This document shows, piece after piece, positions 44,198-57,973 of a stretch of DNA of 64,000 bases (positions within the stretch are counted from its first letter, which is position 1; every line of letters starts with the position of its first letter). The notes under the pieces are model-generated. The model saw only the letters and a program-made list of their open reading frames with translations, was not told the origin of the DNA and ran no database searches. A program made the translations under genes and the position numbers. The DNA comes from Patescibacteria group bacterium. GTDB taxonomy: Bacteria > Patescibacteriota > Microgenomatia > Levybacterales > UBA12049. Location of the stretch: NCBI GenBank assembly GCA_023484045.1, contig JAMDAA010000022.1, positions 4,201 through 68,200 of the forward strand, in the 5' to 3' direction.

Positions 44198-44304
44198 ACA
44201 TATTCATTGTATATAATTGATAAAAATAGTATGTATAACTCATTTTTATACGAAAAAATGTTGACTATTGACATATAGATTATTTTTTGATACTATCTAA
44301 GCAA

Positions 44305-45516
44305 ATGATTCACTCTTTTACTTGCAAAAACTTTTATTCATTCCCTAAGAAAACAACCATTAGCTTTGTTGTTAATGAAAATGCTCCTGATAATAATGGA
44401 TATCTTAAAACTCCTTCAGGGGTGCGCCTTTCTAAGGCAGAAATTGTCATTGGTTCTAACGCTTCAGGGAAAACCAATCTTCTTAAAATAGTGCCGTTTT
44501 TAAAATGGATTATCCTTGACTCGTTTAACATAAATCCATCAGCACCCATACCGGTACAACCATTTATGTTTAGTGATTTAAAAAACAAACCAACAGAACT
44601 TTCTGTGGAGTTTGAAATTGATGGTAATATCTATCTGTACGAATTTGTTCTGAATAGCAAGAGAATCATATCGGAAAACCTTAAAGTTAAAAATAAAACT
44701 AAGAAACGTGTTACTTATAAAATGCTTTTTTCTCGAAATTGGGACGAAGAAAGCGAAAAATATAACTTTGAAGGCAAAAATTTCGATTTACCAAAAGGGT
44801 TTGAAAATTTACTTCGTTCAAATGCGAGTGTTATTGGTTCTGCTTCGCGATTGAACCATAAAGAAAGTCAAGAAATTGCAAAATATTGGCAACAAGTAGA
44901 GACAAATGTTATTGAAGCTGGTTGGATAGGCGATCATTTATTACTTAATGCGACTCAACAATTGCCAGAGGTATTTAACTTCTATAGCGAAAATGAGTCG
45001 TTAAAGAAGGAAGCTGAAAAGCTATTATCCCGTTTTGACCTGGGTTTAGCAGGATTTGAGATAGAAAAACAAAAACAGGAAAACGGTTTTTTACTTAATA
45101 TAAAGGCTACGCATTTATTGAATGGGCAAAAGCATTATCTTCCTGTTCAATATGAATCTTCGGGTACAAAACAGCTTTTTGTGCTTTTAAAGACAATTCT
45201 GCAGGTTTTAACTAAAGGTGGCGTAGCAATATTGGATGAGTTTGATGTTAATTTGCACCCGGAAATGGTTCTATCGCTTTTTGAATTATTTATTCAACCT
45301 GAAACCAATCCTAAAAATGCCCAAATATTATTTAGCACCCATAGCCACCTAGTCTTAAGCAAGCTAGACAAGTACCAGATAATTCTAACTGAAAAAAATG
45401 ATGATGGTGCAAGTGAATCCTGGCGTTTAGATGAAATGTCTGGAGTTCGTGCAGACGATAATTATTACTCAAAATATATTGCTGGTGCATATGGAGCCAT
45501 CCCAAAAATTAATTAA
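44305..45516 (+). CDS. AAA_21-type ABC/ATPase, AbiLi/RloA-like defence ATPase
   Basis: Walker A GSNASGKTN, Walker B AILDEFDVNLHP, ABC-like SSGTKQL. Promoter-like TTGACA..TACTAT immediately upstream. Confidence 0.7.
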   Translation: MIHSFTCKNFYSFPKKTTISFVVNENAPDNNGYLKTPSGVRLSKAEIVIGSNASGKTNLLKIVPFLKWIILDSFNINPSAPIPVQPFMFSDLKNKPTELSVEFEIDGNIYLYEFVLNSKRIISENLKVKNKTKKRVTYKMLFSRNWDEESEKYNFEGKNFDLPKGFENLLRSNASVIGSASRLNHKESQEIAKYWQQVETNVIEAGWIGDHLLLNATQQLPEVFNFYSENESLKKEAEKLLSRFDLGLAGFEIEKQKQENGFLLNIKATHLLNGQKHYLPVQYESSGTKQLFVLLKTILQVLTKGGVAILDEFDVNLHPEMVLSLFELFIQPETNPKNAQILFSTHSHLVLSKLDKYQIILTEKNDDGASESWRLDEMSGVRADDNYYSKYIAGAYGAIPKIN

Positions 45517-45527
45517 ATGGAAATACT

Positions 45528-46064
45528 ATGTCGAGAACAAATCCTTACAAGAAAAAAAGACGCTCGGCAAACAAGACAATTCTTATTTACAGTGAGGGAT
45601 TACATGAAGAAGTTTTCCTAAAGCACCTAAGAGGTTTATACTCCCAGAACAAAAATGTTGCAATTACTGTCAAAAAAGGTAAAGGCGGAACTGCTGATTC
45701 TCTTGTAATTCAGGCGAATAAAACATTAGGCGCCTTTGATAGAAGAGTCGTGGTATTAGATAACGATAAAAACAAATCCGAAATGCAAAAAGCTAGGCAA
45801 GAAGCAGAAAATAGAAAAATTGAATTATTCGAACATACACCTTGCCTTGAAGCGGTACTATTATCCATATTACGCAAAGGACAAAACTTCAAACAGAAAA
45901 GTTCCAGTTGGTGTAAACAAGAATTTGAATCAAAATATATTGATAGAAAAAAGAGAGGTGAAGTAGACGAATATGTAAAGCTTTTTCCTACGAGTCTACT
46001 GAATAAAGAAATTTCGAAAGTTGCCGAGTTAAAAAGGTTGATTTCTCTTATGCTTGGGGAGTGA
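45528..46064 (+). CDS. RloB/AbiLii-like (DUF4276, TOPRIM-like) partner protein
   Basis: 178 aa. N-terminus KKRRSANKTILIYSEGLHEEVFLKHL fits the RloB pattern (basic stretch plus ILIvcEG..tE). Lies 12 nt after the ATPase. Confidence 0.6.
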   Translation: MSRTNPYKKKRRSANKTILIYSEGLHEEVFLKHLRGLYSQNKNVAITVKKGKGGTADSLVIQANKTLGAFDRRVVVLDNDKNKSEMQKARQEAENRKIELFEHTPCLEAVLLSILRKGQNFKQKSSSWCKQEFESKYIDRKKRGEVDEYVKLFPTSLLNKEISKVAELKRLISLMLGE

Positions 46065-46285: not shown

Positions 46286-47428
46286 ATGAGTTTAGAAACA
46301 CAACCAGTTAGGTACGAAGATAGAGTTGCAACAGTTGTTGGTGGGCGTGGGCAACTAGGAAGCCGAATCGTCAAAGGTATTGATGGATTGGGCTTTAAAG
46401 AAGTAAGGGTTTGTGAAAAGGGAGATCCTTTTACTGATTTTATAAGATTGTCAACAGATCTATTTTTTGCTGTTGATGCAGATCAGGCAAAAGATATGCT
46501 TCACTCAACGCGCGATCTATTGCAGCCACAACATTCTATTCTTGATGGTTCAAGCGTGAAATCACCTTTAATTTCTCTTTATCGAGAATTAGATAATATT
46601 GGCATTAGCGTCTGTTCTACACATTTAGGAGCTGTTCCTGCTCAACCTTGGCGAGGAGTAAAAGTATGGGTTTGTGAAGTTGGCCAAAACTCAGAAAATG
46701 CTAAAAGACTAGCTGTAGATTTATTTTTAGCCAAGAACACATCAATCCAGCAAATCGATATTGAGGATCATCAGAAAGTAGAACAAGATCAATGGTTTAC
46801 TTTTGCTGTTATGCATATTTTTGCTGCAGCTCTGCGAAAATACGGGCTTCCTTTAGAAAGATTTAATGCTTTTGCGACTCTCAATGCAGAACTTGCGACA
46901 CTCCCTTTAGGCCGAACTCTTGGCCAAGGAACAGTTGTTCCATCGGAAGTTTTGCACAGTCAACCCCGAAAGAAAGAGTTTTTTGATGAAATCAGCGCAG
47001 CCTTAGAAGAGTTAAGAGGAAGTTTAGATGATAGAGAAAAGTTACAAGAATTTATGGGACGGAATATTGAATTTCATAATAATCCTACAGGAGTTGTAAA
47101 TTCGGTGTTTAAGAAAGCAGGTATTGTGGGAGCACGAAATGCCAATCTTCGTATGTATGCTTTTAGTTTCCGCACAACTGACGATAGACCAGGAAAACTA
47201 CGGGAGCTGCTTCGTCCATTTTATAATGAGGGTACTAATCTTACTGCAATTGATTCAATGCCTGGAGTAATTACACCTGATGAAGAGCAGCGGGGAGTAA
47301 ACTCAGACAATATTGTGGATTTTGACATAGGTATCGATCCTAAAACAATCAACCCTCAAAAGGCAGAAAGAATAAAGGAAAGATTAAGAGAAATGGGATG
47401 TGTAATTGATAACAGACAAATAATTTAA
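46286..47428 (+). CDS. tyrA: prephenate/arogenate dehydrogenase (TyrA-like) with C-terminal ACT-like domain
   Basis: N-terminal Rossmann VVGGRGQLGS, ILDGSSVKSPLI, IEDHQKV...AVMHIFAAAL. C-terminal FRTTDDRPGKLRELL fits the ACT fold. Confidence 0.55.
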   Translation: MSLETQPVRYEDRVATVVGGRGQLGSRIVKGIDGLGFKEVRVCEKGDPFTDFIRLSTDLFFAVDADQAKDMLHSTRDLLQPQHSILDGSSVKSPLISLYRELDNIGISVCSTHLGAVPAQPWRGVKVWVCEVGQNSENAKRLAVDLFLAKNTSIQQIDIEDHQKVEQDQWFTFAVMHIFAAALRKYGLPLERFNAFATLNAELATLPLGRTLGQGTVVPSEVLHSQPRKKEFFDEISAALEELRGSLDDREKLQEFMGRNIEFHNNPTGVVNSVFKKAGIVGARNANLRMYAFSFRTTDDRPGKLRELLRPFYNEGTNLTAIDSMPGVITPDEEQRGVNSDNIVDFDIGIDPKTINPQKAERIKERLREMGCVIDNRQII

Positions 47429-47480
47429 CTTATTTTTAGCTCGCTATATCAACCTAATCCCCAGTCTATTTTACAACTAT

Positions 47481-47500
47481 CTGGTGAGCCGGACAGGATT
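47481..47500 (-). other. duplicated 3'-end fragment of tRNA-Lys(TTT), T-loop to CCA
   Basis: ctggtgagccggacaggatt is identical to 56109-56128, the 3' end of the intact tRNA-Lys. Confidence 0.7.
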
Positions 47501-47556
47501 GCACTCCGCTAAAGCTTCGAGCAACTAGTTTTCCTGTTCGATATCTTTCTCTAAAG

Positions 47557-47808
47557 CTACATTTCTAGATTCAAAAATCTTTTCTTCATAAATGCGATGC
47601 CTGATCCTGTTTTAAGGTATCGTTCAAATGCCAATGCTTGCCTTTTTGTTTTAAACGCACAATGCCATTCAAGTTGATAATTCAAGTTTGATTTAGTAGA
47701 AAGAACTTTACCTGTCGAGTGTTTTTTTAGACGATTTTTTAAATCAGGGGTATATCCAACATAGTATCTGTTAGTGATGTTATTTCTTAAAATGTAAGTA
47801 TAATACAT
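47557..47808 (-). CDS. small GIY-YIG nuclease-family protein (copy 1)
   Basis: 83 aa. YYTYILRNNITNRYYVGYTPDLKNRLKKH carries the GIY and YIG elements, plus a downstream conserved Arg/Glu. Confidence 0.75.
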   Translation of the reverse strand: MYYTYILRNNITNRYYVGYTPDLKNRLKKHSTGKVLSTKSNLNYQLEWHCAFKTKRQALAFERYLKTGSGIAFMKKRFLNLEM

Positions 47809-47846
47809 TTTAGACAGCTTGCTATCTGTAGCTTTAGCGAAAGATA

Positions 47847-47986
47847 GTGAACGTTTACGAAAAAATTCGAACCTATTTTAAAAATTAATTACGTCTTGCG
47901 TCAGCTCCTCGCTCGTCCGGCTTCGCCGTCCTCGCTTCGTCGCTATTTCGCTTTCGGCGCGGCGCCCCCACCCGCCGCGCCTCCGC
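47847..47986. repeat. inverted repeat A (about 140 bp), partner A' at 54285-54423
   Basis: The reverse complement matches 54285-54423 with at least one mismatch. The GC-rich body contains the T-loop-like aataggttcgaat. Confidence 0.8.
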
Positions 47987-48720
47987 TCATTTTTTGCGCG
48001 CGCGATTTTCGGGAACTTCGTTCCCCTATAATACCACAAACTGAATCGGCCAAAATGGTGGAAATTGGCCGATTCCAAGTACAAAAACTTCCGGTTCCAC
48101 CACTTTTTTGGTTCTCGCCAAGCCAAACGAAAGAACGAACTGAAGATTTTTCCGGCGGTTCCCGCCGGTTTTTTTGTTTCGCCCCTTCCAAACACTTTAC
48201 TATTGTAGAAGAGTACAAGAGTAGAAGATTAAAGTAGAGGTTATCAAATTTCTATCAACCCACCCACCCGACTGAAATTGTTGGCGGCGACCCCATTCAT
48301 CGCGCGCTGGGCGCCCTAGGGGGCGCCTGCGACAACGGTTTTACTTTTCTAAGAGTTCCTACAGCGCGTCCCTCGCCCCGCTGCGGCGGGGCTTGTCTTT
48401 AGTTTTGACTTTTAAGGCTCGCGCGTTCTGGGGTGTCCGCTTTTCGCCCCCGCCTTCTTTATTTGACCCCTTCCTGCTATTCAGGGCTCGGGTTCACGCT
48501 TAAGGAAATAAACTTTAGAACCCTCGCTCCTGATCCCAATGGCTCGCCCCGCGTTTTCTTTCCCTTAAAGATTATCAAGCGGGGCTCGCGTTAGTCGGGA
48601 ACGCTCGTTAAAGTAAGTGGTAACTCGAAGGGTTTTCTGTCGCGTTCCCTCCTTTTTAGCTGGGTGCTATTGAGGGGGCGGGGGCGGCGGAGCCGCCAAC
48701 AACAAAATGAAAAAAAAAGA
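47987..48720 (+). ncRNA. GC-rich ORF-poor region with many stable hairpins; candidate large structured ncRNA (strand uncertain)
   Basis: About 60% GC against a ~35% background. Only overlapping short ORFs on both strands. Hairpins GGGAACuucgGTTCCC, GAATCGGCCAA..TTGGCCGATTC, GGCGCCCuagGGGGCGCC, GCCCCGCugcgGCGGGGC, GGCGGagCCGCC, and a terminator-like CCGGCGGttcCCGCCGG followed by T7. Confidence 0.4.
48152..48176 (+). terminator. intrinsic-terminator-like hairpin inside the GC-rich region
   Basis: CCGGCGG ttc CCGCCGG followed by TTTTTTTG. Confidence 0.45.
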
Positions 48721-48753
48721 TTTTCTTGTCCCATTTTGATACACTGTTAATAT

Positions 48754-49911
48754 ATGGCTGATGATATTCCCCAAGATCAGACACAAACAACGGAGACAAC
48801 AAGCCCAACAGTTCCACCAACTGACCAACCGCCAGTGGAAACTTCACCAGTGCAACCAACATCAGAACAATCATCAACAAATACAGTTTCTTCAGAAACT
48901 CTAAATATTCCTAATCCTGAACCAGTTGCTCCCGCAACTCCCGAACCACAAACACAACCCGCCGAAGCTAAAACAGAAACTCCTGCACAAATAGAAACAC
49001 AACCGCCTGTTTCTCCTCCTGTTTTTGATATTCCGGCATTACATTTTCCGTTCTCCGGTAATTTTCCAGTGACTTTTTCTTGTGGTCAGCAATCAGATAA
49101 CGAAGAAATCAAAAAGAAATTTCAGGAGTGGGGAATTGTTGGCCACAATGGTTTAGATTTTGGATTAACTTCTGGAACCGAAGTTTATCCATGTGATTCT
49201 GGAAAAGTTGTCCAGTCAGGAGATAACGGCGATTTTGGAACATCAATCACTATTCAACATTCGTGGGGACAATCAATTTACGGACATCTTCAAGAAACTA
49301 GAGTCAAAGAAGGCGACGAAATTCAAGTCAACAACGTAATTGGTCTTTCCGGTTCTTCCGGTGCCGCATTTGGTGATCATCTGCATTTTGCCATCAAACC
49401 AAACAATCCTGATTTAAATAATGGTTATCTTGGTTTTATCGACCCTGCGCCTTATTTATCTTTACCATCTCAAAAAGAAGAAACAACCGAAACACCACCA
49501 ATTCAAACCCCACCCGTTGAAGAACAAATGCCGCTGGAAGAAATTAAACCACCGGAACCAGTTATTCATCAAGAAGAGCCGACAATTAACATTGAGCCGG
49601 AAAAACCAGCAGAACAATCCCAAATTCCTCAACCGAGCAATGAAGAAATTCAAAAACAAGTGGATGAAAAACTAAAAACAGAGTTAGATGCCAGAAGATT
49701 AAAAGCTAATCAGGCCAGACAAACAAAGAGAGAAGAAAATTTAATGAAGATTGAAAAACTAATCGAGGAGAAAAAACTAATTAACAATGACGATGTACGA
49801 GAACTTCTTCATGTTTCCCAATCTACAGCCACTAATTACTTAGAGGATTTAGTAAAACGAGGAACAATTAAACTCAATGGCAAGGGTAAAGCAACGATTT
49901 ACAGTTATTAA
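48754..49911 (+). CDS. M23 (LytM-type) peptidase with Pro/Thr-rich N-terminal region and C-terminal winged-helix-like domain
   Basis: HNGLDFGLTSGTEVY...GHLQE...GDHLHFAIKP M23 motifs. N-terminal PT-rich low complexity. C-terminal VRELLHVSQSTATNYLEDLVKRGTI is HTH-like. Confidence 0.75.
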   Translation: MADDIPQDQTQTTETTSPTVPPTDQPPVETSPVQPTSEQSSTNTVSSETLNIPNPEPVAPATPEPQTQPAEAKTETPAQIETQPPVSPPVFDIPALHFPFSGNFPVTFSCGQQSDNEEIKKKFQEWGIVGHNGLDFGLTSGTEVYPCDSGKVVQSGDNGDFGTSITIQHSWGQSIYGHLQETRVKEGDEIQVNNVIGLSGSSGAAFGDHLHFAIKPNNPDLNNGYLGFIDPAPYLSLPSQKEETTETPPIQTPPVEEQMPLEEIKPPEPVIHQEEPTINIEPEKPAEQSQIPQPSNEEIQKQVDEKLKTELDARRLKANQARQTKREENLMKIEKLIEEKKLINNDDVRELLHVSQSTATNYLEDLVKRGTIKLNGKGKATIYSY

Positions 49912-49963
49912 CCCAACATTCAACAACAACAAATATACTCAAGTAATATTTCTATCCAATTAT

Positions 49964-50314
49964 TTATTTTGTTGCTGTGGGTGCCGGATTTGTTGCGGTT
50001 GTTGGTTCAGAGATCGTTTTAGCGACTACTCCGACATTAAACATTTGAGGAAATCTTAATCTGTAAAGGCTCTCCAGAAAATCGGTTCCGGCATAACCTG
50101 CAAGTAAAGATATTCGCCAATCACCATCAGCAATTAATCCTGAAACCACGCCAACAATACCGGAAACCAACATTGTTACCCCAAAATATTGCCAGTGAAT
50201 CTTAAACTCATCAGGGTTTTGAGTTTGTTTTAGTATTCCTACTAATCCGCGAACTAATCCTCCGGCCAGTCCAGTTACTAAATGATAAATTTGAAATTCA
50301 AGTTGTAATTGCAT
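49964..50314 (-). CDS. small two-TM membrane protein (holin-like)
   Basis: 116 aa. Two TM helices and a charged C-terminal tail. Inside the element, near the M23 peptidase. Confidence 0.35.
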   Translation of the reverse strand: MQLQLEFQIYHLVTGLAGGLVRGLVGILKQTQNPDEFKIHWQYFGVTMLVSGIVGVVSGLIADGDWRISLLAGYAGTDFLESLYRLRFPQMFNVGVVAKTISEPTTATNPAPTATK

Positions 50315-50628
50315 TAAGTTTTAGTCACCTCCTTAGATTTTTGTGCTTTTGTACTATTCTGCAAGAGTGCAAACCCACCTTTGCCAAACTTTATTACTTG
50401 ACCAATTTTTGAAATAGTTGAAGTGCTAACTGGAATTTCAGCGGCAATTTCTTCGTATGTTTTGCCTTCCAAAATTAGCTTTGCTATTTTTAGCCTTTGG
50501 GCAAAATCAAGTGTTTTCTCCGGTGAAAACAAGTCTTCGATAAAGATAGTTAAATTCTTTTTGGTTTTGATTTTGAAAAAAGAATTAATAACCAATTGAG
50601 TATCTTTGTTTAGATTTATTTTGTCCAT
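50314..50628 (-). CDS. TrpR-like (YerC/YecD family) DNA-binding protein
   Basis: 104 aa. RLKIAKLILEGKTYEEIAAEIPVSTSTISKIGQVIKFG matches the Trp-repressor-like HTH family. Confidence 0.6.
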   Translation of the reverse strand: MDKINLNKDTQLVINSFFKIKTKKNLTIFIEDLFSPEKTLDFAQRLKIAKLILEGKTYEEIAAEIPVSTSTISKIGQVIKFGKGGFALLQNSTKAQKSKEVTKT

Positions 50629-50629
50629 A

Positions 50630-53542
50630 TTAAACCTTCTTTTTCGCTTTAATTAATAAAACAACTGTAATAAGAATGATAAACGCCATTATTCCGATGA
50701 CTGATATTACTTGTGGATTAAGAAAAGCGTTTGTTTGCTTAACTTGAATGTTTAAATCAAATTCTTTGACATCTCCAGTTAGGTTTACTGTTTGTTCTCC
50801 TTGATAGTTAGCATAAGCAATGTTTATTTTATGTTGACCAGATTCCACATTAGAAAACTGAGCAATTCCGTTTTTATCGGTTGTGGTTTCTTGAACTTTT
50901 GAATGAATAGTAACTTTTGCACCTGGAACAGGTCTGTTTGTCGTATCCACAACCTTAATTTTGACTGTATAGCCATTTTGTTTAACAGCTTGTTTTTCTT
51001 CTTCTGTTTGAGCTGGAACAGTTTTTTGTTCGGTGATCTTAGTTTCTAAATTTCCATTGAATAGACTCTGTAGTGGAGCTGGCAAGTTGTTGTTTATTGA
51101 AAGATAAAATACAGGTTGAGTATATGTGTTTCCTGCACTATCCTTTAGTGCAATTGTACTTTGGTAATGCCCGTCAATTAACGGGAATGGAACAGTAATA
51201 TAAAATCTGGATGACTTTTTGTCGTTTGAACTGTCTTGAATGTTGGACAAAGAATAATCTTGGGTTAAATAGTCAGCATAAGTTTTATCGTCTTTTTGTC
51301 TTTTTAATGTCAGCGTAAGTGTTTGTGGTCCAGACGAAACTTTATCAAAAGTATCGGTCGAATTATTACTATTTGTCTTTATTGAACCCTGATAACTGTC
51401 GACTGCTAATCCTGAGAATGAAGGTGTTCGATTTAAAATACTTATGTTGTAAATTCCTCCGGAATTCACTATCGATACATTTGCAACGGCTAACTCTGAA
51501 ATAGCAGGTGAAGTTTTGTCAATATAAAAATCGGCAGATTGAGAAGTTGAATTAGATTGAGCATCATAAGTAGTAACTGTCCAAGTATGTTTTCCCTCAG
51601 TCAGTTCGGTATTGTTTAAATCTTTAAAGTAAACATGAATTTCGTCGTTTGAACTATCACTATCATTTTCGTTTATGAACTCGATTTTTACAGAGTTGTC
51701 ATCTTTCCATACATAATCGGCTGATCCATTTCCTGAAGTTGGAATACCAGAAGTTGAAAGGCTACGGTTCTTTCCTGAATCTAACGATACAGAATATGAG
51801 GATAAACCACTTCCAGAATCAGAAGACTTTTTGAAAACTAAAGTGGGTTTTGTATCTTCTTTGCTAAAACCCGTTGGAGAAGATAGGGATCCAGCCGTGG
51901 GTGCAGTTGTATCAACTCTAAAATCTGGACTGCCTCCCATGGAAACCCACGATCCGTTACCTGCTGAATTATTAATCCTTGCCTGCCAATGATAGGAAGT
52001 TCCGCTTGTTAACCCGGTAACTGTTACGCTTCCGGTTACGGCTGTTCCCGTAAAAGCGACGGCACTCCCCGTATTTGTGACTGAATTAGTGAAAGCGGTT
52101 CCGTTTGGCTGTATCTCTATTTGAGGAGTAAGGGAATCAGAAGAATTACTTGATGACATGTTAAACTTTAAAATAATTGTTCCTTCGTTTGTATATGCTC
52201 CTGAGGAAATTGCTGTTGTTCCATCTGTTTTATATTGAGCCAATGCGGAAGGTGCCGAGGGCAATATAAACTCATAGACTCCATCATCAGGGGCAGAACC
52301 CTGTGGAACTATTGTTCCGGCAAAATCTGAAGTAAGACTTAAATCCGTACCAGCATTAATTGCCGGGCTAGAAGATGTTAAATGAAAATCTGAACTACTT
52401 CTATTCAAAAATGAAGGTTCTACAAAAGTGCTATGACTATCCCATCCTGTATCTGTTTTCCAGGTTGCGAAATCAACAAATGCGTTATTATATCTAAATT
52501 GACCCTGTGCTGAACCATCTGTGTAGTAAATATTGTAATCAACATCGTTATCGCTCGCTGTATTATTGAGGTCGTCGCTAGCCCTAGTATTATACGCAAA
52601 GACATTATTTCGGATTACTACTCCACTAACAGTGGTTATTGTACTTCCTGGGCCAAATACAAACCCGTGCATATTACCATAACTGGTATTGTTATAAATA
52701 TATGAAACCCCATTCGCTCTTAAATGTTCTTCTACCCATACTCCATTCCAACCCGCTCCATAAGTTATGTTGTACCGAAAAATAAAACCGTTAGAGTTTA
52801 CGTCAAAATGAGCATTGCTCTTATAACCATTGTAAAAAGTGTTCTTTTCAACTAAGGCGTTGATTGTATCTCCCGTATATAAGTTATCACTCCAATCAAG
52901 AAAACCTTGGTTATCATTTAGAGTACTTCCTGTAATTATTGGAGCTGACAAATGGTTAAGCCAAACTCCGATTTGACCAATACTTGTATGATCTAGACCG
53001 TTGTTATAAACATGACTGCCATCTAAGCGAAAACCAGTTGATCGATAACTTGAGCTTTGACCTTCGATTCTAAGTCCAAAAACACCGTTATGATCAATAT
53101 CTGACGAATAAATTTTAAAGTTACTTATTGGGGTAAAATTAGTTGCGTAACTCATCCAAACTCCAGTGTAGTAGTTATTAGTGATCTTCATATTCTGAAG
53201 AGTTATATTTGAAGGTGTGTTCCAGGTTGGTTTTAATCCAAAACCTCTGCCGTACTGTCCGCCTGCTCCGTCAATTTGAAGTCCGTTAAAGGTTATATTA
53301 GATCTGTCATCACAAGATACAACATCATATCTGGCTCCAATTTCCATAGTGTGTGTTGAAGGATTTGCCCCGTCAGAAGCCCAGTAATACACAATATGAG
53401 CAGTGCTGTCATAGTAAAACATTTTTGCGCCTGTTATTGCCGCCAAACTTCCCACAGGTGTAGCCATTACGTTGTCTTCCAGAAGAAGATAAATACCAAT
53501 AGATGCCGTGTAGCTTGCTTTATAAATATTGCCACTTTGCAA
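50630..53542 (-). CDS. about 1000-aa surface protein: right-handed beta-helix (pectate-lyase-like) repeats, Ig/fibronectin-like and carboxypeptidase-regulatory-like domains, C-terminal TM anchor
   Basis: 970-aa ORF from a TTG. N-, S- and G-rich beta-helix repeats (NNVFAYN.., NNTSYGN.., VIRNNVF). C-terminal VISVIGIMAFIILITVVLLIKAKKKV. The true N-terminus with the signal peptide lies upstream in other frames (see 53467-53938). Confidence 0.7.
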   Translation of the reverse strand: MQSGNIYKASYTASIGIYLLLEDNVMATPVGSLAAITGAKMFYYDSTAHIVYYWASDGANPSTHTMEIGARYDVVSCDDRSNITFNGLQIDGAGGQYGRGFGLKPTWNTPSNITLQNMKITNNYYTGVWMSYATNFTPISNFKIYSSDIDHNGVFGLRIEGQSSSYRSTGFRLDGSHVYNNGLDHTSIGQIGVWLNHLSAPIITGSTLNDNQGFLDWSDNLYTGDTINALVEKNTFYNGYKSNAHFDVNSNGFIFRYNITYGAGWNGVWVEEHLRANGVSYIYNNTSYGNMHGFVFGPGSTITTVSGVVIRNNVFAYNTRASDDLNNTASDNDVDYNIYYTDGSAQGQFRYNNAFVDFATWKTDTGWDSHSTFVEPSFLNRSSSDFHLTSSSPAINAGTDLSLTSDFAGTIVPQGSAPDDGVYEFILPSAPSALAQYKTDGTTAISSGAYTNEGTIILKFNMSSSNSSDSLTPQIEIQPNGTAFTNSVTNTGSAVAFTGTAVTGSVTVTGLTSGTSYHWQARINNSAGNGSWVSMGGSPDFRVDTTAPTAGSLSSPTGFSKEDTKPTLVFKKSSDSGSGLSSYSVSLDSGKNRSLSTSGIPTSGNGSADYVWKDDNSVKIEFINENDSDSSNDEIHVYFKDLNNTELTEGKHTWTVTTYDAQSNSTSQSADFYIDKTSPAISELAVANVSIVNSGGIYNISILNRTPSFSGLAVDSYQGSIKTNSNNSTDTFDKVSSGPQTLTLTLKRQKDDKTYADYLTQDYSLSNIQDSSNDKKSSRFYITVPFPLIDGHYQSTIALKDSAGNTYTQPVFYLSINNNLPAPLQSLFNGNLETKITEQKTVPAQTEEEKQAVKQNGYTVKIKVVDTTNRPVPGAKVTIHSKVQETTTDKNGIAQFSNVESGQHKINIAYANYQGEQTVNLTGDVKEFDLNIQVKQTNAFLNPQVISVIGIMAFIILITVVLLIKAKKKV

Positions 53543-53938
53543 ACTCCAACCAGTAACAAGATCGGTCCCTGTGATACGGGTTTGGAAGCTGATGCACCGT
53601 AAGAGTTGTAGGTAATGGGGTTACCTGTGGAACCACCAGTATTTACATACCAAGTTTCTCTCCAAACATCACCTTTCTTTAGTGATACTTGATCTCCAGC
53701 AACAAAACCAAACCCAGCCAGTTTAGCCATCGTTTTAAATGGTCCTGTGCTTCCAGTTGTGTGAGTCTGTTCAAGCCCGTCATAAGAATCATACCCATCA
53801 GTTTGACTAACGTAATAAGTTGCAGCAAAAGCTTTAGTATTTACAACGAAGAATAATGAAACGAATACTAATAGAGAACAAAAAGTTTTTAGGAGAAAAT
53901 TTAGCCGCGGCCTTTTACTCTCTCTCTCTCTCTCTCAT
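53467..53938 (-). other. out-of-frame 5' part of the surface-protein gene: ATG, (GA)9, signal peptide, first beta-helix turns
   Basis: ATG at 53938-53936 is followed by (AG)9 and then an in-frame TAA. The +1 frame encodes SKRPRLNFLLKTFCSLLVFVSLFFVVNTKAFAATYYVSQTDG... continuing into the 87-aa ORF at 53467-53730. A second shift of -1 near 53560-53600 joins this to the 970-aa frame. Confidence 0.55.
53918..53935. repeat. (TC/GA)9 dinucleotide tract at codons 2-7 of the surface-protein gene
   Basis: ctctctctctctctctct on the plus strand. With 9 units the ATG frame stops immediately. With 10 units the ATG would be in frame with the signal peptide. Confidence 0.9.
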
Positions 53939-54120
53939 TTTTGATCCCGAAGTTGGGAGCAATTTGTTTAAACATAACATATTAGATGTGTGAAATTATA
54001 TTTCCCCTACTATTACTATTAAATATAGAAACAATTTCTAGCAAATGCAATAGATAGTTAAGCTTAAAACGTGCCTATTTTTGCTATTGTTTTCTTTTTC
54101 TGTTTTTTGTATATTAAAAA

Positions 54121-54209
54121 TGGACTCAGTTTTGACGGATTGTGTTTTTTAATGGCGCAATCGGACAGATAGGACACAATCCTAACTGAGTCCACCGGTT
54201 GCGCCATTT
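54121..54209. repeat. interleaved inverted repeats, potentially an H-type pseudoknot
   Basis: X TGGACTCAGTT (54121-31) pairs with AACTGAGTCCA (54185-95). Z GGATTGTG (54137-44) pairs with CACAATCC (54175-82). Y TAATGGCGCAA (54150-60) pairs with TTGCGCCATTA (54199-209). The order is X Z Y Z' X' Y'. Confidence 0.5.
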
Positions 54210-54284
54210 AAGTATTAAAAACTATAGGGAAAAAGTTCTTTAAAATTTTTGCGTTTTTTCTTTAGGATTCGAGCTGACAGTTTT

Positions 54285-54423
54285 CGGAGGCGCGGCGGGT
54301 GGAGGCGCCGCGCCGAAAGCGAAATAGCGACGAAGCGAGGACGGCGAAGCCGGACGAGCGAGGAGCTGACGCAAGACGTAATTAATTTTTAAAATAGGTT
54401 CGAATTTTTTCGTAAACGTTCAC
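54285..54423. repeat. inverted repeat A', partner of 47847-47986
   Basis: Reverse complement of A. Contiguous with B'. Confidence 0.8.
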
Positions 54424-54526
54424 CAGTAAAGAAATTGAAGCAGAAGTGGGGGCAGCGCGAGCCGCGCCCCCAATCGCGGCGAGCGCTGCAAAGGGATATT
54501 TTAACGCTGGCCGGAGTTGCCGGTTA
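54421..54526. repeat. inverted repeat B', perfect partner of 56010-56116
   Basis: tcaccagtaaagaaattgaagcagaagtgggggcagcgcgagccgcgcccccaatcgcggcgagcgctgcaaagggatattttaacgctggccggagttgccggtt equals the reverse complement of 56010-56116. Confidence 0.85.
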
Positions 54527-54614
54527 GAATGAAAGGACAGAAGAAAAAACGCAAAAATTAACAAGGTAGAATTTTAAAGAACTTTTTAAGAGTACAAAAG
54601 TACTAAACTAAAGT

Positions 54615-56009
54615 ATGAATAAATACATAGCATATTGCCGAAAATCAACCGACGAGAAAGACAAACAGGTGTTATCTATTGAAGCGCAAATTGCAGAACT
54701 CAAAGAATTTGCTAAACGTGATCATTTAGAAGTTGTTGAATTTATTACCGAAGCCAAAACAGCTAAAATGCCAGGGCGTGAGCAATTTGCGCTAGTCTTA
54801 AAGAAAATTGAAAAAGGAGAAGCCCAAGGCATTATAAGTTGGCACCCAGACCGTTTAGCCAGAAATTCAATAGATGGAGGTAAAGTTATCTATTTATTGG
54901 ATACCGGAAAGTTAATAGATTTGAAATTTCCGTCTTTTTGGTTTGAAAATACTCCCCAAGGAAAATTTATGTTATCCATTGCCTTCGGCCAGTCAAAATA
55001 TTATGTGGATAATTTATCGGAAAATGTAAAGCGTGGTAATCGCCAAAAACTTCGTCGTGGTGAGTGGCCTTCAAAAGCACCATACGGATATATTAATAAT
55101 CCTAAAACCAGAGCCGTTGATGTTGACCCCGAATTATCCAAAGTTGTTAAAAAAGCTTTTCAGCTTTTTTCCGAAGGCAATAAGTCGTTTACGGAAATTT
55201 CAAACTTTATGTTTAAGTTTGGGATGAAGCGGGAAAGTTGTGGGAAACCGATTAAAGTTGATCAAATAAAACGGATGTTATCAAACAAATTTTATGTAGG
55301 AATTTTAAAGTATGCCGATGAATATTATGAAGCTTCCCATAAATGTTTCATCTCCAAACAACTTTTTAATGATGTCCAAAAGCAGGTGGAAAAAATCTTG
55401 CGTCCTAGGCAACACGGCCACGATTTTGCTTTTTCCGGTTTAGCCACTTGTGGAGAGTGCGGCGCCGCAATCACGGCAGAACAACACGTAAAACATTACA
55501 AAAATGGTAAATCCCAAACTTTTATCTATTACCGCTGTACTAAAAAGTTAAAGCCCTGTACACAAAAGTATTTACCAGAAGGTGATTTAGAAGAGCAATT
55601 AAAAAAAGTGGTGGGTGATTGCGGCTTGCACCAGGATTGGGAACCCTATTTTGAAAAATGGATGGCCGAAGATGAGAAAAAAGATCAAGCTAATTCAGAC
55701 ACAGAATTAAGAAGGCTTGGCGAGAACCAAAAGGAAATTGAAACAAAACTTAATCGCTTACTTAATGGTTATTTAGATCAAGTGGTGGAACCGGAAGTTT
55801 ACAAACAAAAGAAAAATGAATTATTTGACGAAAAACTAAAACTTACCGAGCAAATTGCCAAAGTTTCAAAGATTGGTTCGTCTTGGCTCGAACCTATGAG
55901 AGAATTCGTAATTAGCGCCTTGCAGGCGCAAAAAATCGCGCGCGTAAAAAATGAGTGCCATGATTTGGCGATCATGGCAAAAACTGTCGGCTCGAACTAT
56001 TCTTTATTT
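54615..56009 (+). CDS. large serine recombinase (resolvase/invertase catalytic domain plus recombinase and zinc-ribbon-like extension)
   Basis: N-terminus YIAYCRKSTDEKDKQVLSIEAQ with the catalytic Ser in the Y.R.S context. About 465 aa to the start of repeat B. The frame stays open through B and antisense tRNA-Lys to 56276. C-terminal Cys pairs CGECG..CTKK. Confidence 0.8.
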
Positions 56010-56116
56010 AACCGGCAACTCCGGCCAGCGTTAAAATATCCCTTTGCAGCGCTCGCCGCGATTGGGGGCGCGGCTCGCGCTGCCCCCACTTCTGCTTCAA
56101 TTTCTTTACTGGTGAG
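56010..56116. repeat. inverted repeat B (107 bp) abutting and overlapping the tRNA-Lys CCA end
   Basis: Perfect reverse complement of 54421-54526. Contains the strong hairpin GGGGGCGCGgctCGCGCtgCCCCC. Ends in CTGGTGA, shared with the tRNA 3' terminus. Confidence 0.85.
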
Positions 56117-56184
56117 CCGGACAGGATTCGAACCTGTGACCAATTGCTTAAAAGGCAACTGCTCTACCGCTGAGCTACCGGCCC
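56110..56184 (-). tRNA. tRNA-Lys (anticodon TTT) with encoded CCA
   Basis: Acceptor GGGCCGG/CCGGCTC, anticodon stem GTTGC/GCAAT, loop CTTTTAA, T-loop TTCGAAT, 3' ACCA. Confidence 0.85.
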
Positions 56185-56272
56185 GCCCACCACGCAAGCC
56201 GAGCATTGCGAGGCGTTGCGGGCAGGCCCGCTCGCCCCATCTTCACACTCAACTTTTGCAGCTTTTTAAATT

Positions 56273-56524
56273 CTAGTTTTCAAAAATTTTCTTCCAAATC
56301 CAGTTTTAAAATATTTTTCTCTTTTAATCGCCTTTTCTTTATCTAAGCACGCTTCGTAATATATTAGTCTTAAAGGTAATCTGCCTTTTGTTGCTAAGCT
56401 TTTTCTTTTTCTGTGAACTTCTAACCTTTTCTTTAAATCTTCTGTATATCCAGTATAAAGCTTACCGTCTTTTTCACTTTTAAGAACATATGTATAAACA
56501 TTACCTTTTCTCGTGATTATATCA
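56273..56524 (-). pseudogene. GIY-YIG nuclease-family gene (copy 3) lacking a canonical start codon
   Basis: Minus-strand frame encodes ITRKGNVYTYVLKSEKDGKLYTGYTEDLKKRLEVHRK...REKYFKTGFGRKFL with an in-frame TAA immediately upstream and no ATG, GTG or TTG. Not in the ORF track. Lies 88 bp upstream of tRNA-Lys on the same strand. Confidence 0.5.
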
Positions 56525-56538
56525 ATTTATATGTATTA

Positions 56539-56567
56539 TTGACAAGTTCGATCGAGCTAATATAAAC
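56539..56567 (+). promoter_or_regulatory. putative sigma70-type promoter
   Basis: TTGACA, 16 nt, TATAAA about 135 nt upstream of the 56700 ORF. Confidence 0.4.
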
Positions 56568-57359: not shown

Positions 57360-57446
57360 ATTGAACGTATTTAGGTTTTAGGATATAATATACGAACGCC
57401 GCGTTCGTCTAGTGGCGGTAATTAGGTTTTTCCCGAGACAATTTTT

Positions 57447-57520
57447 GGCGCGTTCGTCTAGAGGCCTAGGACAGATGGTTTTCATCCATCAAATCGCGGG
57501 TTCGAATCCCGCACGCGCTA
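57447..57520 (+). tRNA. tRNA-Glu (anticodon TTC)
   Basis: Acceptor GGCGCGT/ACGCGCT, anticodon stem GATGG/CCATC, loop TTTTCAT, T-loop TTCGAAT. The upstream 57399-57411 partially duplicates the 5' end (gcgttcgtctag). Confidence 0.85.
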
Positions 57521-57547
57521 CACTTCGGCAGGCTCAGTGCAAGCAAT

Positions 57548-57838
57548 ATGAATAAGCCTCAGAGTTGGTATCTTTACATGCTTCTTTGCGATCAGAAATC
57601 TTTTTATGTTGGGATTACTCCTAATCCGAAAGAAAGAATAGCCGAACATAGAAATAAAGAGTGCATCGCGACGAAAGAATTTTCTGATTTTAAAATGGTT
57701 TATTGTGAAAAGTATTTGAATAAATTTGAAGCAGTAAAAAGAGAAAAACAAATTAAAGGTTGGAGTAGAACAAAGAAGCAAATGCTTATTGAAGGAAAAT
57801 TAGGGATAAATACAAGCACTGAGTTTGTCGAAGTGTAA
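57548..57838 (+). CDS. small GIY-YIG nuclease-family protein (copy 2)
   Basis: 96 aa. WYLYMLLCDQKSFYVGITPNPKERIAEH, with a downstream conserved Arg and Glu. Starts 27 nt after tRNA-Glu. Confidence 0.75.
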   Translation: MNKPQSWYLYMLLCDQKSFYVGITPNPKERIAEHRNKECIATKEFSDFKMVYCEKYLNKFEAVKREKQIKGWSRTKKQMLIEGKLGINTSTEFVEV

Positions 57839-57874
57839 AGAGGATGAGAAGTTTACTCTGAGCGAAGCCGAAGA

Positions 57875-57892
57875 GAATCCCGCACGCGCTAC
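57875..57892 (+). other. duplicated 3'-end fragment of tRNA-Glu (T-loop to 3' end)
   Basis: gaatcccgcacgcgctac is identical to 57504-57521 of the intact tRNA. Preceded by a CTGAGCGAAGCCGAAG motif. Confidence 0.7.
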
Positions 57893-57973
57893 CATTACTG
57901 CCTAACCTTCTTGACATTCGTTTTTAAATCTCCATATACTGATAAAGATCTTATTTTTGAAAGGGGGTGAATT

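Follow-up and report, generated by a model that had tools for sequence, protein, structure and literature searches.

Candidate selfish mobile cassettes carrying a minimal GIY-YIG nuclease gene at tRNA genes of Patescibacteria

Introduction

Why should a small nuclease gene lie directly behind a tRNA gene and be followed, in turn, by a second copy of that tRNA's 3′ end? The question is posed twice in the window analysed here, a 64,000-nt stretch of a Patescibacteria contig (JAMDAA010000022.1), once at tRNA-Lys(UUU) and once at tRNA-Glu(UUC). A preliminary description of this DNA had noted the arrangement at both tRNAs, proposed that the tRNA-Lys copy had been split by a serine-recombinase element, and reported a third, start-less GIY-YIG gene on the other side of tRNA-Lys. 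In the full-text literature that we searched, which leaves out most subscription journals, we found no description of tRNA-linked minimal GIY-YIG cassettes. Here, we dissect both loci to the base and compare them with relatives. Related bacteria show this layout next to dozens of different tRNAs, which suggests a role for a large, uncharacterised nuclease family.

Results

Three putative nucleases of the Slx1/UPF0213 branch

The window encodes three GIY-YIG proteins: G1 (47557–47808, minus strand; 83 residues from an ATG start), G2 (57548–57838, plus strand; 96 residues) and G3 (56266–56501, minus strand). Against a PF01541 cutoff of 22.6 bits they score 53.6 (E 2.8e-14), 59.2 and 53.8 bits (E 2.4e-14, on the stop-free frame of G3), respectively. 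An alignment of the three, which the preliminary description had called for, gave pairwise identities of 29–41%, so they are not recent copies of each other. In 3-way and 18-way alignments residues Y16, G18, R26, H30 and E62 (G1 numbering) do not vary, and Y3 and Y5 vary hardly or not at all. The domain stands alone in 83–96 residues, with no auxiliary domain. The best PDB matches are to UPF0213 (1zg2, 4e-11; 1ywl, 2e-07) and to the structure-specific nuclease SLX1 (7cq2, 1e-04), closer to UPF0213/SLX1 than to UvrC/I-TevI, while the TIGR01453 intron-endonuclease model scored 20.6 bits against a cutoff of 56. In size, and in their conserved Tyr, Tyr, Arg, His and Glu, the window proteins resemble UPF0213 (YhbQ, BH0048, EF2693) and Slx1-like proteins. 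Their sequence features place G1, G2 and G3 in the minimal Slx1/UPF0213 branch of the GIY-YIG superfamily, as putative nucleases.

A profile search gathered 19,325 clusters at 50% identity (E ≤ 0.001), and nearly all among the best 150 relatives listed are 78–130 residues long. Homologues of G1 in Patescibacteria are 70–86% identical to it; exact-protein look-ups of G1 and G2 returned no identical recorded protein, and the GIY-YIG proteins had no match in defence-system libraries (PADLOC). Prokaryotic Slx1-like/UPF0213 proteins have been regarded as vertically inherited repair or RNA-metabolism proteins (PMC1564403), and the literature searched does not describe tRNA linkage, flanking repeats or mobility for this family.

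Anatomy of the cassette at tRNA-Lys(UUU)

Behind G1, positions 47481–47500 match 56109–56128 exactly over 20 nt, a copy of the tRNA-Lys(UUU) 3′ end that spans AATCC of the T loop through CCA and a following G, as first reported. By our own estimate, such a 20-mer is expected by chance about 0.002 times per 64 kb. Nor is it a coincidental match within a longer conserved intergenic block, an explanation raised at the outset, since repeats of this type also occur in three relatives (L044, L045 and L069) and each copies its own local tRNA variant. What did not stand is the length of the repeat: the cassette's own repeat is 17 nt, AATCCTGTCCGGCTCAC, from the T loop to tRNA position 74 (DR2-Lys, 47484–47500, minus strand). 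Identity with the tRNA runs on exactly to 47481 (CAG), and the CAG on the tRNA side, which lengthens the 17-nt match to 20 nt, is part of the recombinase element described below, because the crossover sequence GTGA lies inside the tRNA 3′ end.

Two terminal hairpins delimit the unit. The right one (47499–47524, minus strand), TTGCT-CGAAGCTTTAGCGGAG-TGCAA, adjoins DR2, and its loop is the reverse complement of the loop of the left one (47822–47847, minus strand), C TATCT-TTCGCTAAAGCTAC-AGATAG, which begins at the final base of the tRNA-derived repeat. In 29 distinct homologous ends the right hairpin is paired in 93% of cells, with 45 cells altered on both sides; in 44 distinct ends the left hairpin is paired in 98.6%, with 39 cells altered on both sides and two-sided changes in five of its six stem pairs. 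At neither end did any of 500 shuffles reach the observed covariation. As free DNA the terminal hairpins fold at −1.2 to −2.4 kcal/mol, no better than shuffles; the case for them rests on covariation.

The left end also has a second possible partner. An internal inverted repeat at the 3′ end of the G1 ORF (IR-R1, 47542–47561, minus strand), a region that codes for the tail VALxKD in intact homologues, is complementary to the cassette left end; the full inverted repeat, 47536–47561 with 47827–47852, covers 26 nt at 88%. Complementarity between left end and ORF tail is retained in 55 cassettes, and RNA folding predicts a long-range stem of about 20 bp in the G1 cassette (z = −3.8) and of 22 bp in the G2 cassette (z = −3.3). 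Thus the left end can form either the local hairpin or the long-range stem. Wobble counts in the long-range stem, 57 G-U against 65 A-C pairs (35 A-C without two unpaired columns), are too weak to choose between an RNA and a DNA role, and the repeats could serve RNA processing instead of DNA recognition.

Only 38 nt separate tRNA position 74 (47847) from the G1 start codon (47808), and the stretch from the tRNA to G1, like that from the tRNA to G2 at the other locus, showed no promoter-like site. The alignment with the uninterrupted loci and a comparison of protein tails both revealed a 1-nt deletion near the G1 C-terminus relative to homologues of about 93 residues. G1 is thus one of two frameshifted genes among the three GIY-YIG genes of the window, the other being G3.

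A later serine-recombinase element

The intact tRNA-Lys(UUU) (56110–56184, minus strand), identified by ARAGORN, by Rfam (tRNA, 75.5 bits) and through the crossover analysis, is separated from its cassette by an integrative element of 8,265 bp (47851–56115) with a large serine recombinase, inserted at GTGA at the exact junction of tRNA-Lys and cassette. The boundaries of the element are fixed to the base by an internal inverted copy of its joined ends. Positions 47847–47985 are the reverse complement of 54285–54423 and positions 56009–56115 that of 54420–54526, and the two halves of the joined-ends copy overlap by the 4 nt GTGA, the deduced crossover core. As a consequence, bases 56110–56111 of the tRNA, the CA of CCA, come from the end of the element. 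The recombinase carries the Resolvase (PF00239, 1.6e-20), Recombinase (PF07508, 3.9e-10) and Zn-ribbon (PF13408, 3.3e-11) domains and resembles XisF and CcrB, with scores under the cutoffs of both models. This domain set, the short core without a long target duplication and the empty site in relatives are those of large serine recombinases.

The element is missing at the matching point in L044, L045 and L069, where the locus is uninterrupted. When we excised it in silico, the tRNA-Lys locus became collinear, base for base, with these three loci, bearing out both the proposed split and the proposed ancestral order of tRNA-Lys, 38 nt, G1 and tRNA fragment. The recombinase element is later than the cassette and is not a part of it.

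Related cassettes at other tRNAs

We collected 123 related loci by protein similarity alone. A same-strand tRNA adjoins 82 of the 101 GIY-YIG genes that could be assessed. Among 111 distinct GIY-YIG ORFs, 69 are placed 28–250 nt downstream of a same-strand tRNA, 9 just upstream of one and 4 between two tRNAs; no tRNA is in range of another 19, and the last 10 lie at contig edges. The local tRNA 3′ end is repeated after the gene in 56 of 85 downstream cases, against 1/85 for reverse-complement and 1/85 for shuffled controls, and the repeats are bounded by universal tRNA features, (A)ATCC and AC. Related cassettes with 87–95% protein identity occupy Glu-UUC, Glu-CUC, Lys-UUU, Lys-CUU and Tyr tRNAs; the clade also has more distant members on Arg-UCU. 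The tree implies at least 13 changes of tRNA amino-acid type, and every time the repeat is that of the local tRNA. An encoded CCA after DR2 proved not to be a general rule, being true of both window cassettes and a few others.

The terminal hairpins keep close company with the nuclease gene: in 563 kb scanned, 84 of 89 such hairpins lie at most 400 nt from a GIY-YIG ORF. Hairpin-only derivatives also exist, one of them at 9165–9192 of the window, far from any tRNA and likewise preceded by AC. Tandem cassette arrays occur, and frameshifted copies are frequent. Loci L051 and L045 have a common right flank and different left flanks, with the breakpoint exactly at the left hairpin. In an old cassette DR2 carries two mismatches in L100 and three in L023, a stepwise decay by which perfect repeats suggest recent events.

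At the same tRNAs, syntenic relatives have GIY-YIG genes of other subfamilies or lack such genes altogether, in line with the turnover that the preliminary description had proposed. L128 and L129 contain tRNA-Lys, MscS and tRNA-Glu without a cassette, the tRNA-Glu site is empty in L127, and L130 is a further empty-site locus. In L023 and L100 a G1-type cassette occupies the position of the window's G2, the tRNA-Lys 3′ site is empty with an identical tRNA end, and another subfamily is found at the G3 position. Among the loci compared, we found no filled/empty pair for a G1-type cassette in which the tRNA allele and both flanks are shared. The downstream flanks of L023/L100 do not align with those of L127, L128 or L130, and these loci therefore offer no clean fresh-insertion junction. 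On the far side of G1, a relative (L124) of the neighbouring 380-aa gene (46286–47428), 94% identical, diverges right after the stop codon; no tRNA follows there, hence this synteny provides no empty site.

Known RNA elements did not account for the cassettes. An Rfam search of 46–59 kb returned only the two tRNAs, and nothing relevant was found upstream of tRNA-less cassettes. A group I intron or other known RNA was rejected, the cassette being too small for a ribozyme plus the ORF. The tRNA introns described in Patescibacteria sit at position 35/36 (PMC13011429) and are unrelated to the cassettes.

An apparently replaced tRNA allele at the tRNA-Glu locus

The G2 cassette (57521–57892, plus strand) has the same layout as that of G1, with a left repeat (57521–57540), the ORF, an internal repeat (57816–57835), a right hairpin (57856–57875) and DR2-Glu (57875–57892). 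An 18-nt tRNA-Glu repeat, 57504–57521 matching 57875–57892, flanks G2, so that the two loci do mirror each other as first described. The entire cassette is absent from L127, L128 and L130.

The functional tRNA-Glu(UUC) (57447–57521, plus strand), supported by ARAGORN, Rfam and comparison with syntenic relatives, differs from its counterpart in the syntenic locus L127 at 14 of 75 positions. Upstream of it lies a 19-nt remnant of a resident tRNA-Glu 5′ end, GCCGCGTTCGTCTAGTGGC (57398–57416, plus strand), which is 100% identical to the L127 tRNA-Glu 5′ end and stands at an equal distance from the promoter. Checked for co-conversion, the locus has the form of a single event: a divergent complete tRNA-Glu, G2 and the matching repeat, with 19 nt of the resident allele left upstream. 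The window tRNA-Glu allele apparently arrived together with G2. As tRNA and matching repeat seem to have come together, this event does not explain how the repeat was first made. The divergent allele, the covarying terminal hairpins and the G1 frameshift were all absent from the preliminary description.

G3 and the upstream class

G3 belongs to a separate class, whose genes lie downstream of the tRNA promoter and upstream of the tRNA itself. Its stop-free reading frame spans 56266–56526, in place of the 56273–56524 given earlier, and does lack ATG, GTG or TTG after the in-frame TAA, as had been noted. The orthologues, intact in L044, L045 and L069, begin ATGTTTTAT (also given as ATGTTTTATACATATG); the window has ATGTTT-ATACATATG, with one T missing from the run at 56496–56498, directly after the conserved ATG at 56499–56501. 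G3 is therefore a frameshifted pseudogene or the product of a homopolymer/assembly error. The suggestion of a non-canonical start falls away, and that of decay holds unless the assembly is at fault.

The conserved ATG sits behind a near-consensus promoter-like site (56516–56545, minus strand; TTGTCA-18-TATAAT with TG, 11/12 match), which would drive G3, tRNA-Lys and G1 as a single transcript. L045 retains the site, and one like it stands upstream of tRNA-Lys in the empty locus L128. We found no flanking tRNA fragment in the G3 subgroup, so G3 cannot be counted as a third instance of the arrangement at G1 and G2. It may be a decaying copy from a sister class whose members insert 5′ of tRNAs.

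Discussion

A model for tRNA-targeting nuclease cassettes

Our comparisons lead us to the reading that the G1 (47484–47847) and G2 (57521–57892) units are probably widespread, nuclease-only selfish mobile cassettes that target tRNA genes. A typical cassette measures about 350–400 bp (~370 bp at tRNA-Lys) and carries one gene for a minimal GIY-YIG protein of 80–100 residues, with no separate DNA-binding domain, flanked by two hairpins, each the inverted repeat of the other. It starts at the base after tRNA position 74 and ends with a direct repeat of 15–18 nt, from the TψC loop to position 74. Having no promoter of its own, it would be expressed by read-through from the tRNA promoter, and in the transcript the left end and the ORF tail would form a stem of about 20 bp that closes off the ORF. 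By analogy with T4 SegB, the nuclease would break tRNA genes that carry no cassette, at or close to the conserved TψC region, whereupon host repair would copy the cassette from a donor and sometimes co-copy the neighbouring tRNA, as may have happened at the window tRNA-Glu. We propose that insertion is tolerated because the tRNA-end duplication keeps the essential tRNA intact. The tRNA-Lys cassette would later have been cut off from its tRNA by the unrelated serine-recombinase element at GTGA. The insertion chemistry is what we infer from the sequence. We count against this model that the proteins have no counterpart of the DNA-binding domain on which the specificity of Seg and I-Tev enzymes depends, that the hairpins are thermodynamically weak as free DNA, that two of the three window genes are frameshifted, and that no tRNA is in range of 19 of the 111 ORFs.

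T4 SegB is the closest precedent. The site of this GIY-YIG homing endonuclease includes the conserved TψC stem-loop motif found in tRNA genes, and the enzyme drives the inheritance of its own gene and of neighbouring tRNA genes (PMC2330249). The window offers parallels in a nuclease gene beside a tRNA, a repeat beginning within the TψC loop and, in the case of tRNA-Glu, an allele that apparently arrived with the nuclease gene. SegB, however, is a phage-borne protein of about 220 residues with a DNA-binding part, and it is not known to have terminal hairpins or a tRNA-end duplication, whereas the window proteins are catalytic domains of 83–96 residues in cellular genomes, and their cassettes have covarying inverted-repeat hairpins and a 15–18-nt repeat. 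Seg and I-Tev enzymes generally join a catalytic to a DNA-binding domain in some 200–250 residues, which the window proteins do not; presence and absence at a conserved locus, another mark of such enzymes, is found (empty in L127, L128/L129 and L130, filled in L023/L100 and the window).

A further parallel comes from the free-standing GIY-YIG ORFs of fungal mitochondria, such as that at Allomyces atp6, which enter a gene at its 3′ end and supply a new one in its place. In both settings the host gene comes first, with its new or duplicated 3′ end, followed by the endonuclease ORF and then by the displaced 3′ fragment; however, the organelle targets are protein-coding and the enzymes larger, and hairpin ends and varied tRNA targets are not known from those elements.

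Alternative explanations

It is conceivable, if rather doubtful, that the cassette is a true DNA transposon with the GIY-YIG protein as its transposase, acting on hairpin-shaped terminal inverted repeats. The protein would excise or copy the element and insert it at tRNA ends through nicks staggered by 15–18 nt, one strand being cut within the TψC loop and the opposite strand after position 74, so that the repeat would be a fresh target-site duplication. Such a mechanism would account for a repeat that always matches the local tRNA even though near-identical cassettes occupy different tRNA species, for repeat boundaries at (A)ATCC and AC, and for covarying inverted repeats at the ends. It would also suit the hairpin-only derivatives, including that at 9165–9192 with its preceding AC, the L051/L045 breakpoint exactly at the left hairpin and the tandem arrays. 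In a fuller version, which we think a shade less probable again, the minimal Slx1/UPF0213-type protein would be the transposase of an unrecognised, nuclease-only class of DNA transposons; it would recognise its own hairpins together with tRNA shape, TψC or acceptor features and make nicks staggered by about 17 nt, both repeat copies would come from the recipient, and AATCC/AC microhomology would allow priming on a donor at a different tRNA. Against a transposase, neither an excised circle nor a fresh insertion was seen, and the tRNA-Glu event resembles recombinational replacement more than simple insertion. We know of no GIY-YIG enzyme that performs strand transfer or cuts with a 17-nt stagger, and I-TevI leaves 2-nt 3′ overhangs. 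SegB cleavage does the same (PMC2330249), unlike the stagger required.

The cassettes resemble the IS200/IS605 and REP/RAYT elements in that their ends are short and structured, they are very small, and derivatives reduced to the hairpin exist. IS200/IS605 elements encode an HUH Y1 transposase and are not known to have inverted-repeat ends, a target duplication or a long flanking direct repeat; in contrast, the cassettes lack an HUH transposase and have both inverted-repeat ends and a long flanking direct repeat.

An accessory host function in the tRNA operon, be it RNA processing, repair or defence, seems unlikely to us. Under it, the inverted repeats would be processing stems of RNase III type and the tRNA fragment a leftover of operon evolution. 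Judged from promoter-like sites, the gene would be co-transcribed with the tRNA; a panhandle of 20–22 bp surrounds the ORF in both window cassettes, and the long-range complementarity is kept, with some G-U pairs. A TrmH fusion has led others to propose a role in RNA metabolism for prokaryotic Slx1-like proteins (PMC1564403). Presence and absence in syntenic relatives, different subfamilies at the same site, frequent frameshifted copies, arrays, decaying repeats and the lack of any PADLOC match speak against it, and processing stems would fit the mobile-element reading as well without replacing it.

Less probable still is that the cassettes are units mobilised in cis, with the tRNA-end repeats as att sites of an integrase encoded elsewhere. 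The likeness to integrase islands is real in that direct repeats of the tRNA 3′ end from the T loop, which leave the tRNA intact, are their classic signature, and a recombinase element lies in the same locus. The cassette, however, has no integrase, the nuclease being the only ORF between the repeats, and the repeat is not fixed for an element family: it differs from one tRNA to the next, whereas the cassette ends are constant, and one attP core therefore cannot explain the repeats. As for the resident serine recombinase, its 4-nt core lies elsewhere in the sequence, and it is missing from the uninterrupted relatives.

Lastly, the idea that 47501–56108 is as a whole one 8.6-kb island in tRNA-Lys, with 20-nt att repeats and G1 as cargo, is almost certainly wrong: exact 20-nt direct repeats do bracket the recombinase-bearing segment, but it is refuted by the true element ends in the internal joined-ends copy (47847–47850 and 56112–56115), one of which supplies three of the 20 nt, and by L044, L045 and L069, which have tRNA-Lys, a G1-type cassette and the repeat without the recombinase element.

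Implications

The rule of tRNA, hairpin, small ORF, hairpin and tRNA-end fragment would improve the annotation of tRNA fragments in Patescibacteria genomes, and would help to annotate small ORFs that now appear start-less or extended. Were the transposase reading true, it would give a function to a large part of a family of at least 19,000 sequence clusters. For the selfish tRNA-targeting cassettes that we favour, the consequences reach from enzyme to genome. If true, how a nuclease of 80–100 residues without a DNA-binding domain finds its target becomes a testable matter. If many UPF0213/YhbQ/Slx1-like proteins power tRNA-flanking cassettes, the patchy, multi-copy distribution of the family would be explained. 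And tRNA genes would have a new class of parasite, able to replace tRNA alleles across lineages, so that tRNA sequences near such cassettes would be unsafe as phylogenetic or host-assignment markers.

GIY-YIG genes and tRNA-end repeats in the window

Three GIY-YIG ORFs (PF01541; E-values of ~1e-14 to 1e-16) accompany two tRNA genes, located by ARAGORN at 56110–56184 on the minus strand (tRNA-Lys(UUU)) and 57447–57521 on the plus strand (tRNA-Glu(UUC)). G1 (47557–47808, minus strand, 83 aa) lies on the 3′ side of tRNA-Lys, G2 (57548–57838, plus strand, 96 aa) on the 3′ side of tRNA-Glu, and G3, a stop-free frame at 56266–56526 on the minus strand, on the 5′ side of tRNA-Lys. Alignment of the three proteins, a check suggested in the preliminary description, gave pairwise identities of just 29–41%. 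The 20-nt copy of the tRNA-Lys 3′ end reported there beside G1, beginning at AATCC, was recovered exactly by a repeat finder (47481–47500 = 56109–56128), as was the same layout at tRNA-Glu, with an exact 18-nt copy of that tRNA's 3′ end (57504–57521 = 57875–57892). A 26-nt inverted repeat surrounds G1 (47536–47561/47827–47852), and a corresponding pair brackets G2 (57521–57540/57816–57835). Relative to its homologues, G1 has a 1-nt deletion close to the gene end and has lost the usual tail, ...FKSxxVALxKD; the deletion falls in the 47579–47583 region, and the inverted-repeat nucleotides that normally code for this tail are still present. No promoter-like site was found between tRNA and G1 or between tRNA and G2. 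Just upstream of the locus, at 44287–46064, is an AbiLi/AbiLii-type defence pair (AAA_21 ATPase and RloB-like protein).

Linkage to tRNA genes among relatives

G1 has hundreds of relatives in Patescibacteria, 70–86% identical. With a GIY-YIG profile and ARAGORN, we scanned 43 genome and 80 metagenome loci that were picked by protein similarity alone. Among 111 distinct full-length GIY-YIG ORFs, 69 lay 28–250 nt downstream of a same-strand tRNA, 9 just upstream of one and 4 between two tRNAs; 19 had no tRNA in range, and 10 were at contig edges. In one case a tmRNA gene precedes the ORF by 419 nt, which is outside the 250-nt criterion. Among the partner tRNAs are Glu, Lys, Tyr, Arg, Ser, Val, Ala, Pro, His and Ile; Bacteroidota, Planctomycetota and Omnitrophota are among the hosts. 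A repeat of the local tRNA 3′ end (ungapped, score ≥11, 0–80 nt past the stop codon) followed the gene in 56 of 85 downstream cases, against 1/85 for the reverse complement and 1/85 for a shuffle. The repeated stretch starts ~18–13 nt short of the tRNA end and finishes with the AC of positions 73–74.

Structure of the cassette ends

Behind the tRNA, the gene and its terminal hairpins form a cassette whose left end is constant whatever the tRNA identity (C-TATCT / TTCGCTAAAGCTAC / AGATAG), as is the right end before the repeat (stem, CGAA-GC...GC-GAAG, stem). In the left hairpin, 98.6% of cells were paired across 44 distinct sequences, with changes on both sides in 5 of 6 stem pairs; in the right hairpin, 93% were paired across 29 distinct sequences, 45 cells being altered on both sides. 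The observed covariation was reached by 0 of 500 shuffles for each hairpin, and G-U intermediates are nearly absent from both. The right-hairpin loop is the reverse complement of the left-hairpin loop, so that the cassette ends constitute inverted repeats, a third copy of which sits in the ORF tail. Across 563 kb, 84 of 89 cassette-type hairpins occurred within 400 nt of a GIY-YIG ORF. The terminal hairpins are weak as free DNA; as RNA, the left end and ORF tail form a 20–22-bp stem around the ORF in both window cassettes (z of −3.8 and −3.3), and this complementarity is retained in 55 cassettes.

Hairpins of this type also occur alone. One, CCCTCC-TTCGCTAAAGCTTC-GGAGGG, with AC before it and a GC-rich palindrome after it, lies at 9165–9235, at the 3′ end of ORF 8651–9244 and remote from tRNAs and GIY-YIG genes; it may be a hairpin-only derivative. 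Several unrelated loci (L011, L012/L085, L080/L083 and L086) carry a ~28-nt unit, C[CT]GG TATCT GAAG...CGAA AGATA, behind the AATCC of the repeat and just before the copy of the tRNA 3′ end that follows the gene (DR2). This unit is either a hairpin-only derivative or a remnant of an older cassette.

Indications of mobility: presence, absence and change of tRNA partner

The comparison with syntenic relatives that the preliminary description called for revealed both filled and empty states of a Levybacteria-type locus: tRNA-Lys (minus), an MscS-like gene and tRNA-Glu (plus). Relatives L128/L129 lack any GIY-YIG gene; in L127 the tRNA-Glu site is empty, with the same downstream genes; L023/L100 carry a G1-type cassette at tRNA-Glu and another subfamily upstream of a tRNA-Lys that has an empty 3′ site and an end identical to that of the window's tRNA-Lys; and in the window G3, G1 and G2 are all present. 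A tree of 50 distinct G1-type proteins requires at least 13 changes of tRNA amino-acid type, and proteins 90% identical were found on different tRNAs, the repeat fitting the local tRNA each time. The repeat of one old cassette is in decay, carrying 2 mismatches in L100 and 3 in L023; this speaks against its being maintained and suggests that perfect copies are signs of recent events. L051 and L045 share cassette, repeat and right flank; their left flanks differ wholly, and the breakpoint coincides exactly with the left hairpin; near the L051 cassette a LOOT RNA (RF03000) takes the place of tRNA-Lys.

Around tRNA-Glu, gene order is the same in the window and in L127, and neighbouring genes are 71–88% identical in nucleotides. 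The two tRNA-Glu genes diverge at 14 of 75 positions, with stems compensated; the window allele is also unlike that of the syntenic L023. Nevertheless, the 19 nt at 57398–57416, and ACGAAC before them, match the L127 tRNA 5′ end exactly. This resident remnant, beside a divergent tRNA-Glu, indicates that ~487 nt (57417–57903) replaced positions 20–75 of the resident tRNA plus 11 nt. The incoming unit comprises a 30-nt leader, a complete and different tRNA-Glu, G2, a repeat fitting the new tRNA, and 11 more nt; the leader, between remnant and functional tRNA (57398–57446 region), is novel sequence. Of 73 cassette-bearing tRNAs, 9 have a similar orphan tRNA 5′ fragment 30–90 nt upstream (control, 1/73). 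Together with the tRNA-Glu event, they indicate that tRNA and cassette can move as a single unit, as in T4 SegB, a phage GIY-YIG homing endonuclease.

G3 and genes upstream of tRNAs

G3 had been described as start-less, either decaying or using a non-canonical start. The latter is unneeded, since an ATG is present at 56499–56501, preceded by AAAAGG and a TTGTCA-18-TATAAT site at 56545–56516. Orthologues in L044 and L045 start ATGTTTTATACATATG (MFYTYV), and that in L069 has the same ...TTTTATACATATG stretch with an ATG two codons further upstream (MQYFYTYV). In alignment, the window reads ATGTTT-ATACATATG, one T of the run being absent right behind the conserved ATG; G3 is thus a frameshifted gene or bears a homopolymer error of assembly.

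GIY-YIG genes directly upstream of a tRNA take two forms. In the first (L023/L100, L097, L098, L062, L060 and L122), a mirror image of the downstream class, the ORF continues into the 5′ end of the tRNA, positions 1 to 12–29 of which are repeated 8–76 nt ahead of the ATG. The second, G3 and its orthologues in L044, L045 and L069, has a 71–81-nt GC-rich hairpin spacer before tRNA-Lys, and no tRNA 5′ fragment was detected near these genes. In the window this block (56186–56262; −15.9 kcal/mol as DNA, in a genome of ~35% GC) adjoins tRNA-Lys(UUU); blocks of varied sequence precede tRNA-Lys in several lineages (L044, L045, L069 and L130). Separately, a 17-nt hairpin, CCCCGATTAAATCGGGG, between duplicated TCAG, splits tRNA-Lys 5′ fragments in L023 (~2005–2021), L100 and L130 (~3950–4000), and looks like a miniature insertion in its own right.

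The serine-recombinase element

The segment between G1 and tRNA-Lys encodes a large serine recombinase with Resolvase, Recombinase and zinc-ribbon domains, and contains an inverted copy of its own joined ends: 47847–47985 is the reverse complement of 54285–54423 (99%), and 56009–56115 that of 54420–54526 (100%). The two parts overlap by GTGA, which sets the element limits at 47851–56115 (8,265 bp). Crossover took place within the tRNA-Lys 3′ end (...GGCTCAC|CAG...), so the pre-insertion tRNA read ...GGCTCAC and then directly TATCTTTCGC...; the cassette's own Lys repeat is 17 nt, AATCCTGTCCGGCTCAC, and the extra CAG at the tRNA-Lys side is the end of the element. Once the element is removed, the window is collinear with L044, L045 and L069, three metagenomic loci without interruption, over a stretch that begins at the G3 promoter, takes in tRNA-Lys and the G1-type gene, and ends at the repeat. 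The pre-insertion order proposed earlier (tRNA-Lys, 38 nt, G1, fragment) was therefore correct.

The element went into the intact tRNA-Lys and not the repeat copy. Read on the tRNA strand, its end is TCACCAG (56105–56115 vs 47478–47487), identical to the 7 nt of tRNA end and CCA-G kept after DR2; the element seems built for restoring a CCA-bearing tRNA-Lys end. The joined-ends copy (54285–54526) is complete, at 242 bp and 99–100% identity, and lies just upstream of the recombinase gene, which is thereby placed between 107-bp perfect inverted repeats, with the cargo between 139-bp ones; this arrangement could permit recombinase-driven inversion, or it could be an assembly artefact. When integrated, the recombinase ORF (54615–56276) stays open as far as 56276 and runs through tRNA-Lys in antisense. 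With the ends joined it would finish ...SLLVNVYEKIRTYFKN, as the small ORF 54382–54564 does, so that the recombinase C-terminus depends on the integration state.

Discussion

We have documented the anatomy and distribution of these cassettes, the covariation of their ends, their presence/absence polymorphism and one replacement event. The nearest relatives of the proteins are UPF0213 proteins and the structure-specific nuclease SLX1; they score below the cutoff of the intron-endonuclease model and have no match in PADLOC. The family is very large, numbering 19,325 clusters at E ≤ 0.001; of the best 150 relatives, nearly all have 78–130 aa. A 2006 superfamily survey took prokaryotic Slx1-like proteins to be vertically inherited and to act perhaps in repair or on RNA, and did not mention linkage to tRNA genes (PMC1564403). 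We found no description of tRNA-linked GIY-YIG cassettes in the full-text literature, the coverage of which was incomplete.

That the cassettes represent a new class of transposon appears rather unlikely. The best-supported reading is that they are nuclease-only selfish elements exploiting tRNA genes, which would offer conserved, highly transcribed targets. The nuclease would cut tRNA genes; we infer this cutting, its position and the first making of the repeat. Insertion would do no harm, since it leaves the tRNA end in duplicate. The frequent switches of tRNA type, with repeats that fit the local tRNA, speak for a target duplicated on insertion, and the tRNA-Glu event shows that ready-made units are also transferred. 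On this reading the cassettes would stand among the free-standing homing-type nuclease cassettes. T4 SegB provides a functional precedent: the site of this GIY-YIG enzyme takes in the TψC motif, and the enzyme spreads together with neighbouring tRNAs (PMC2330249).
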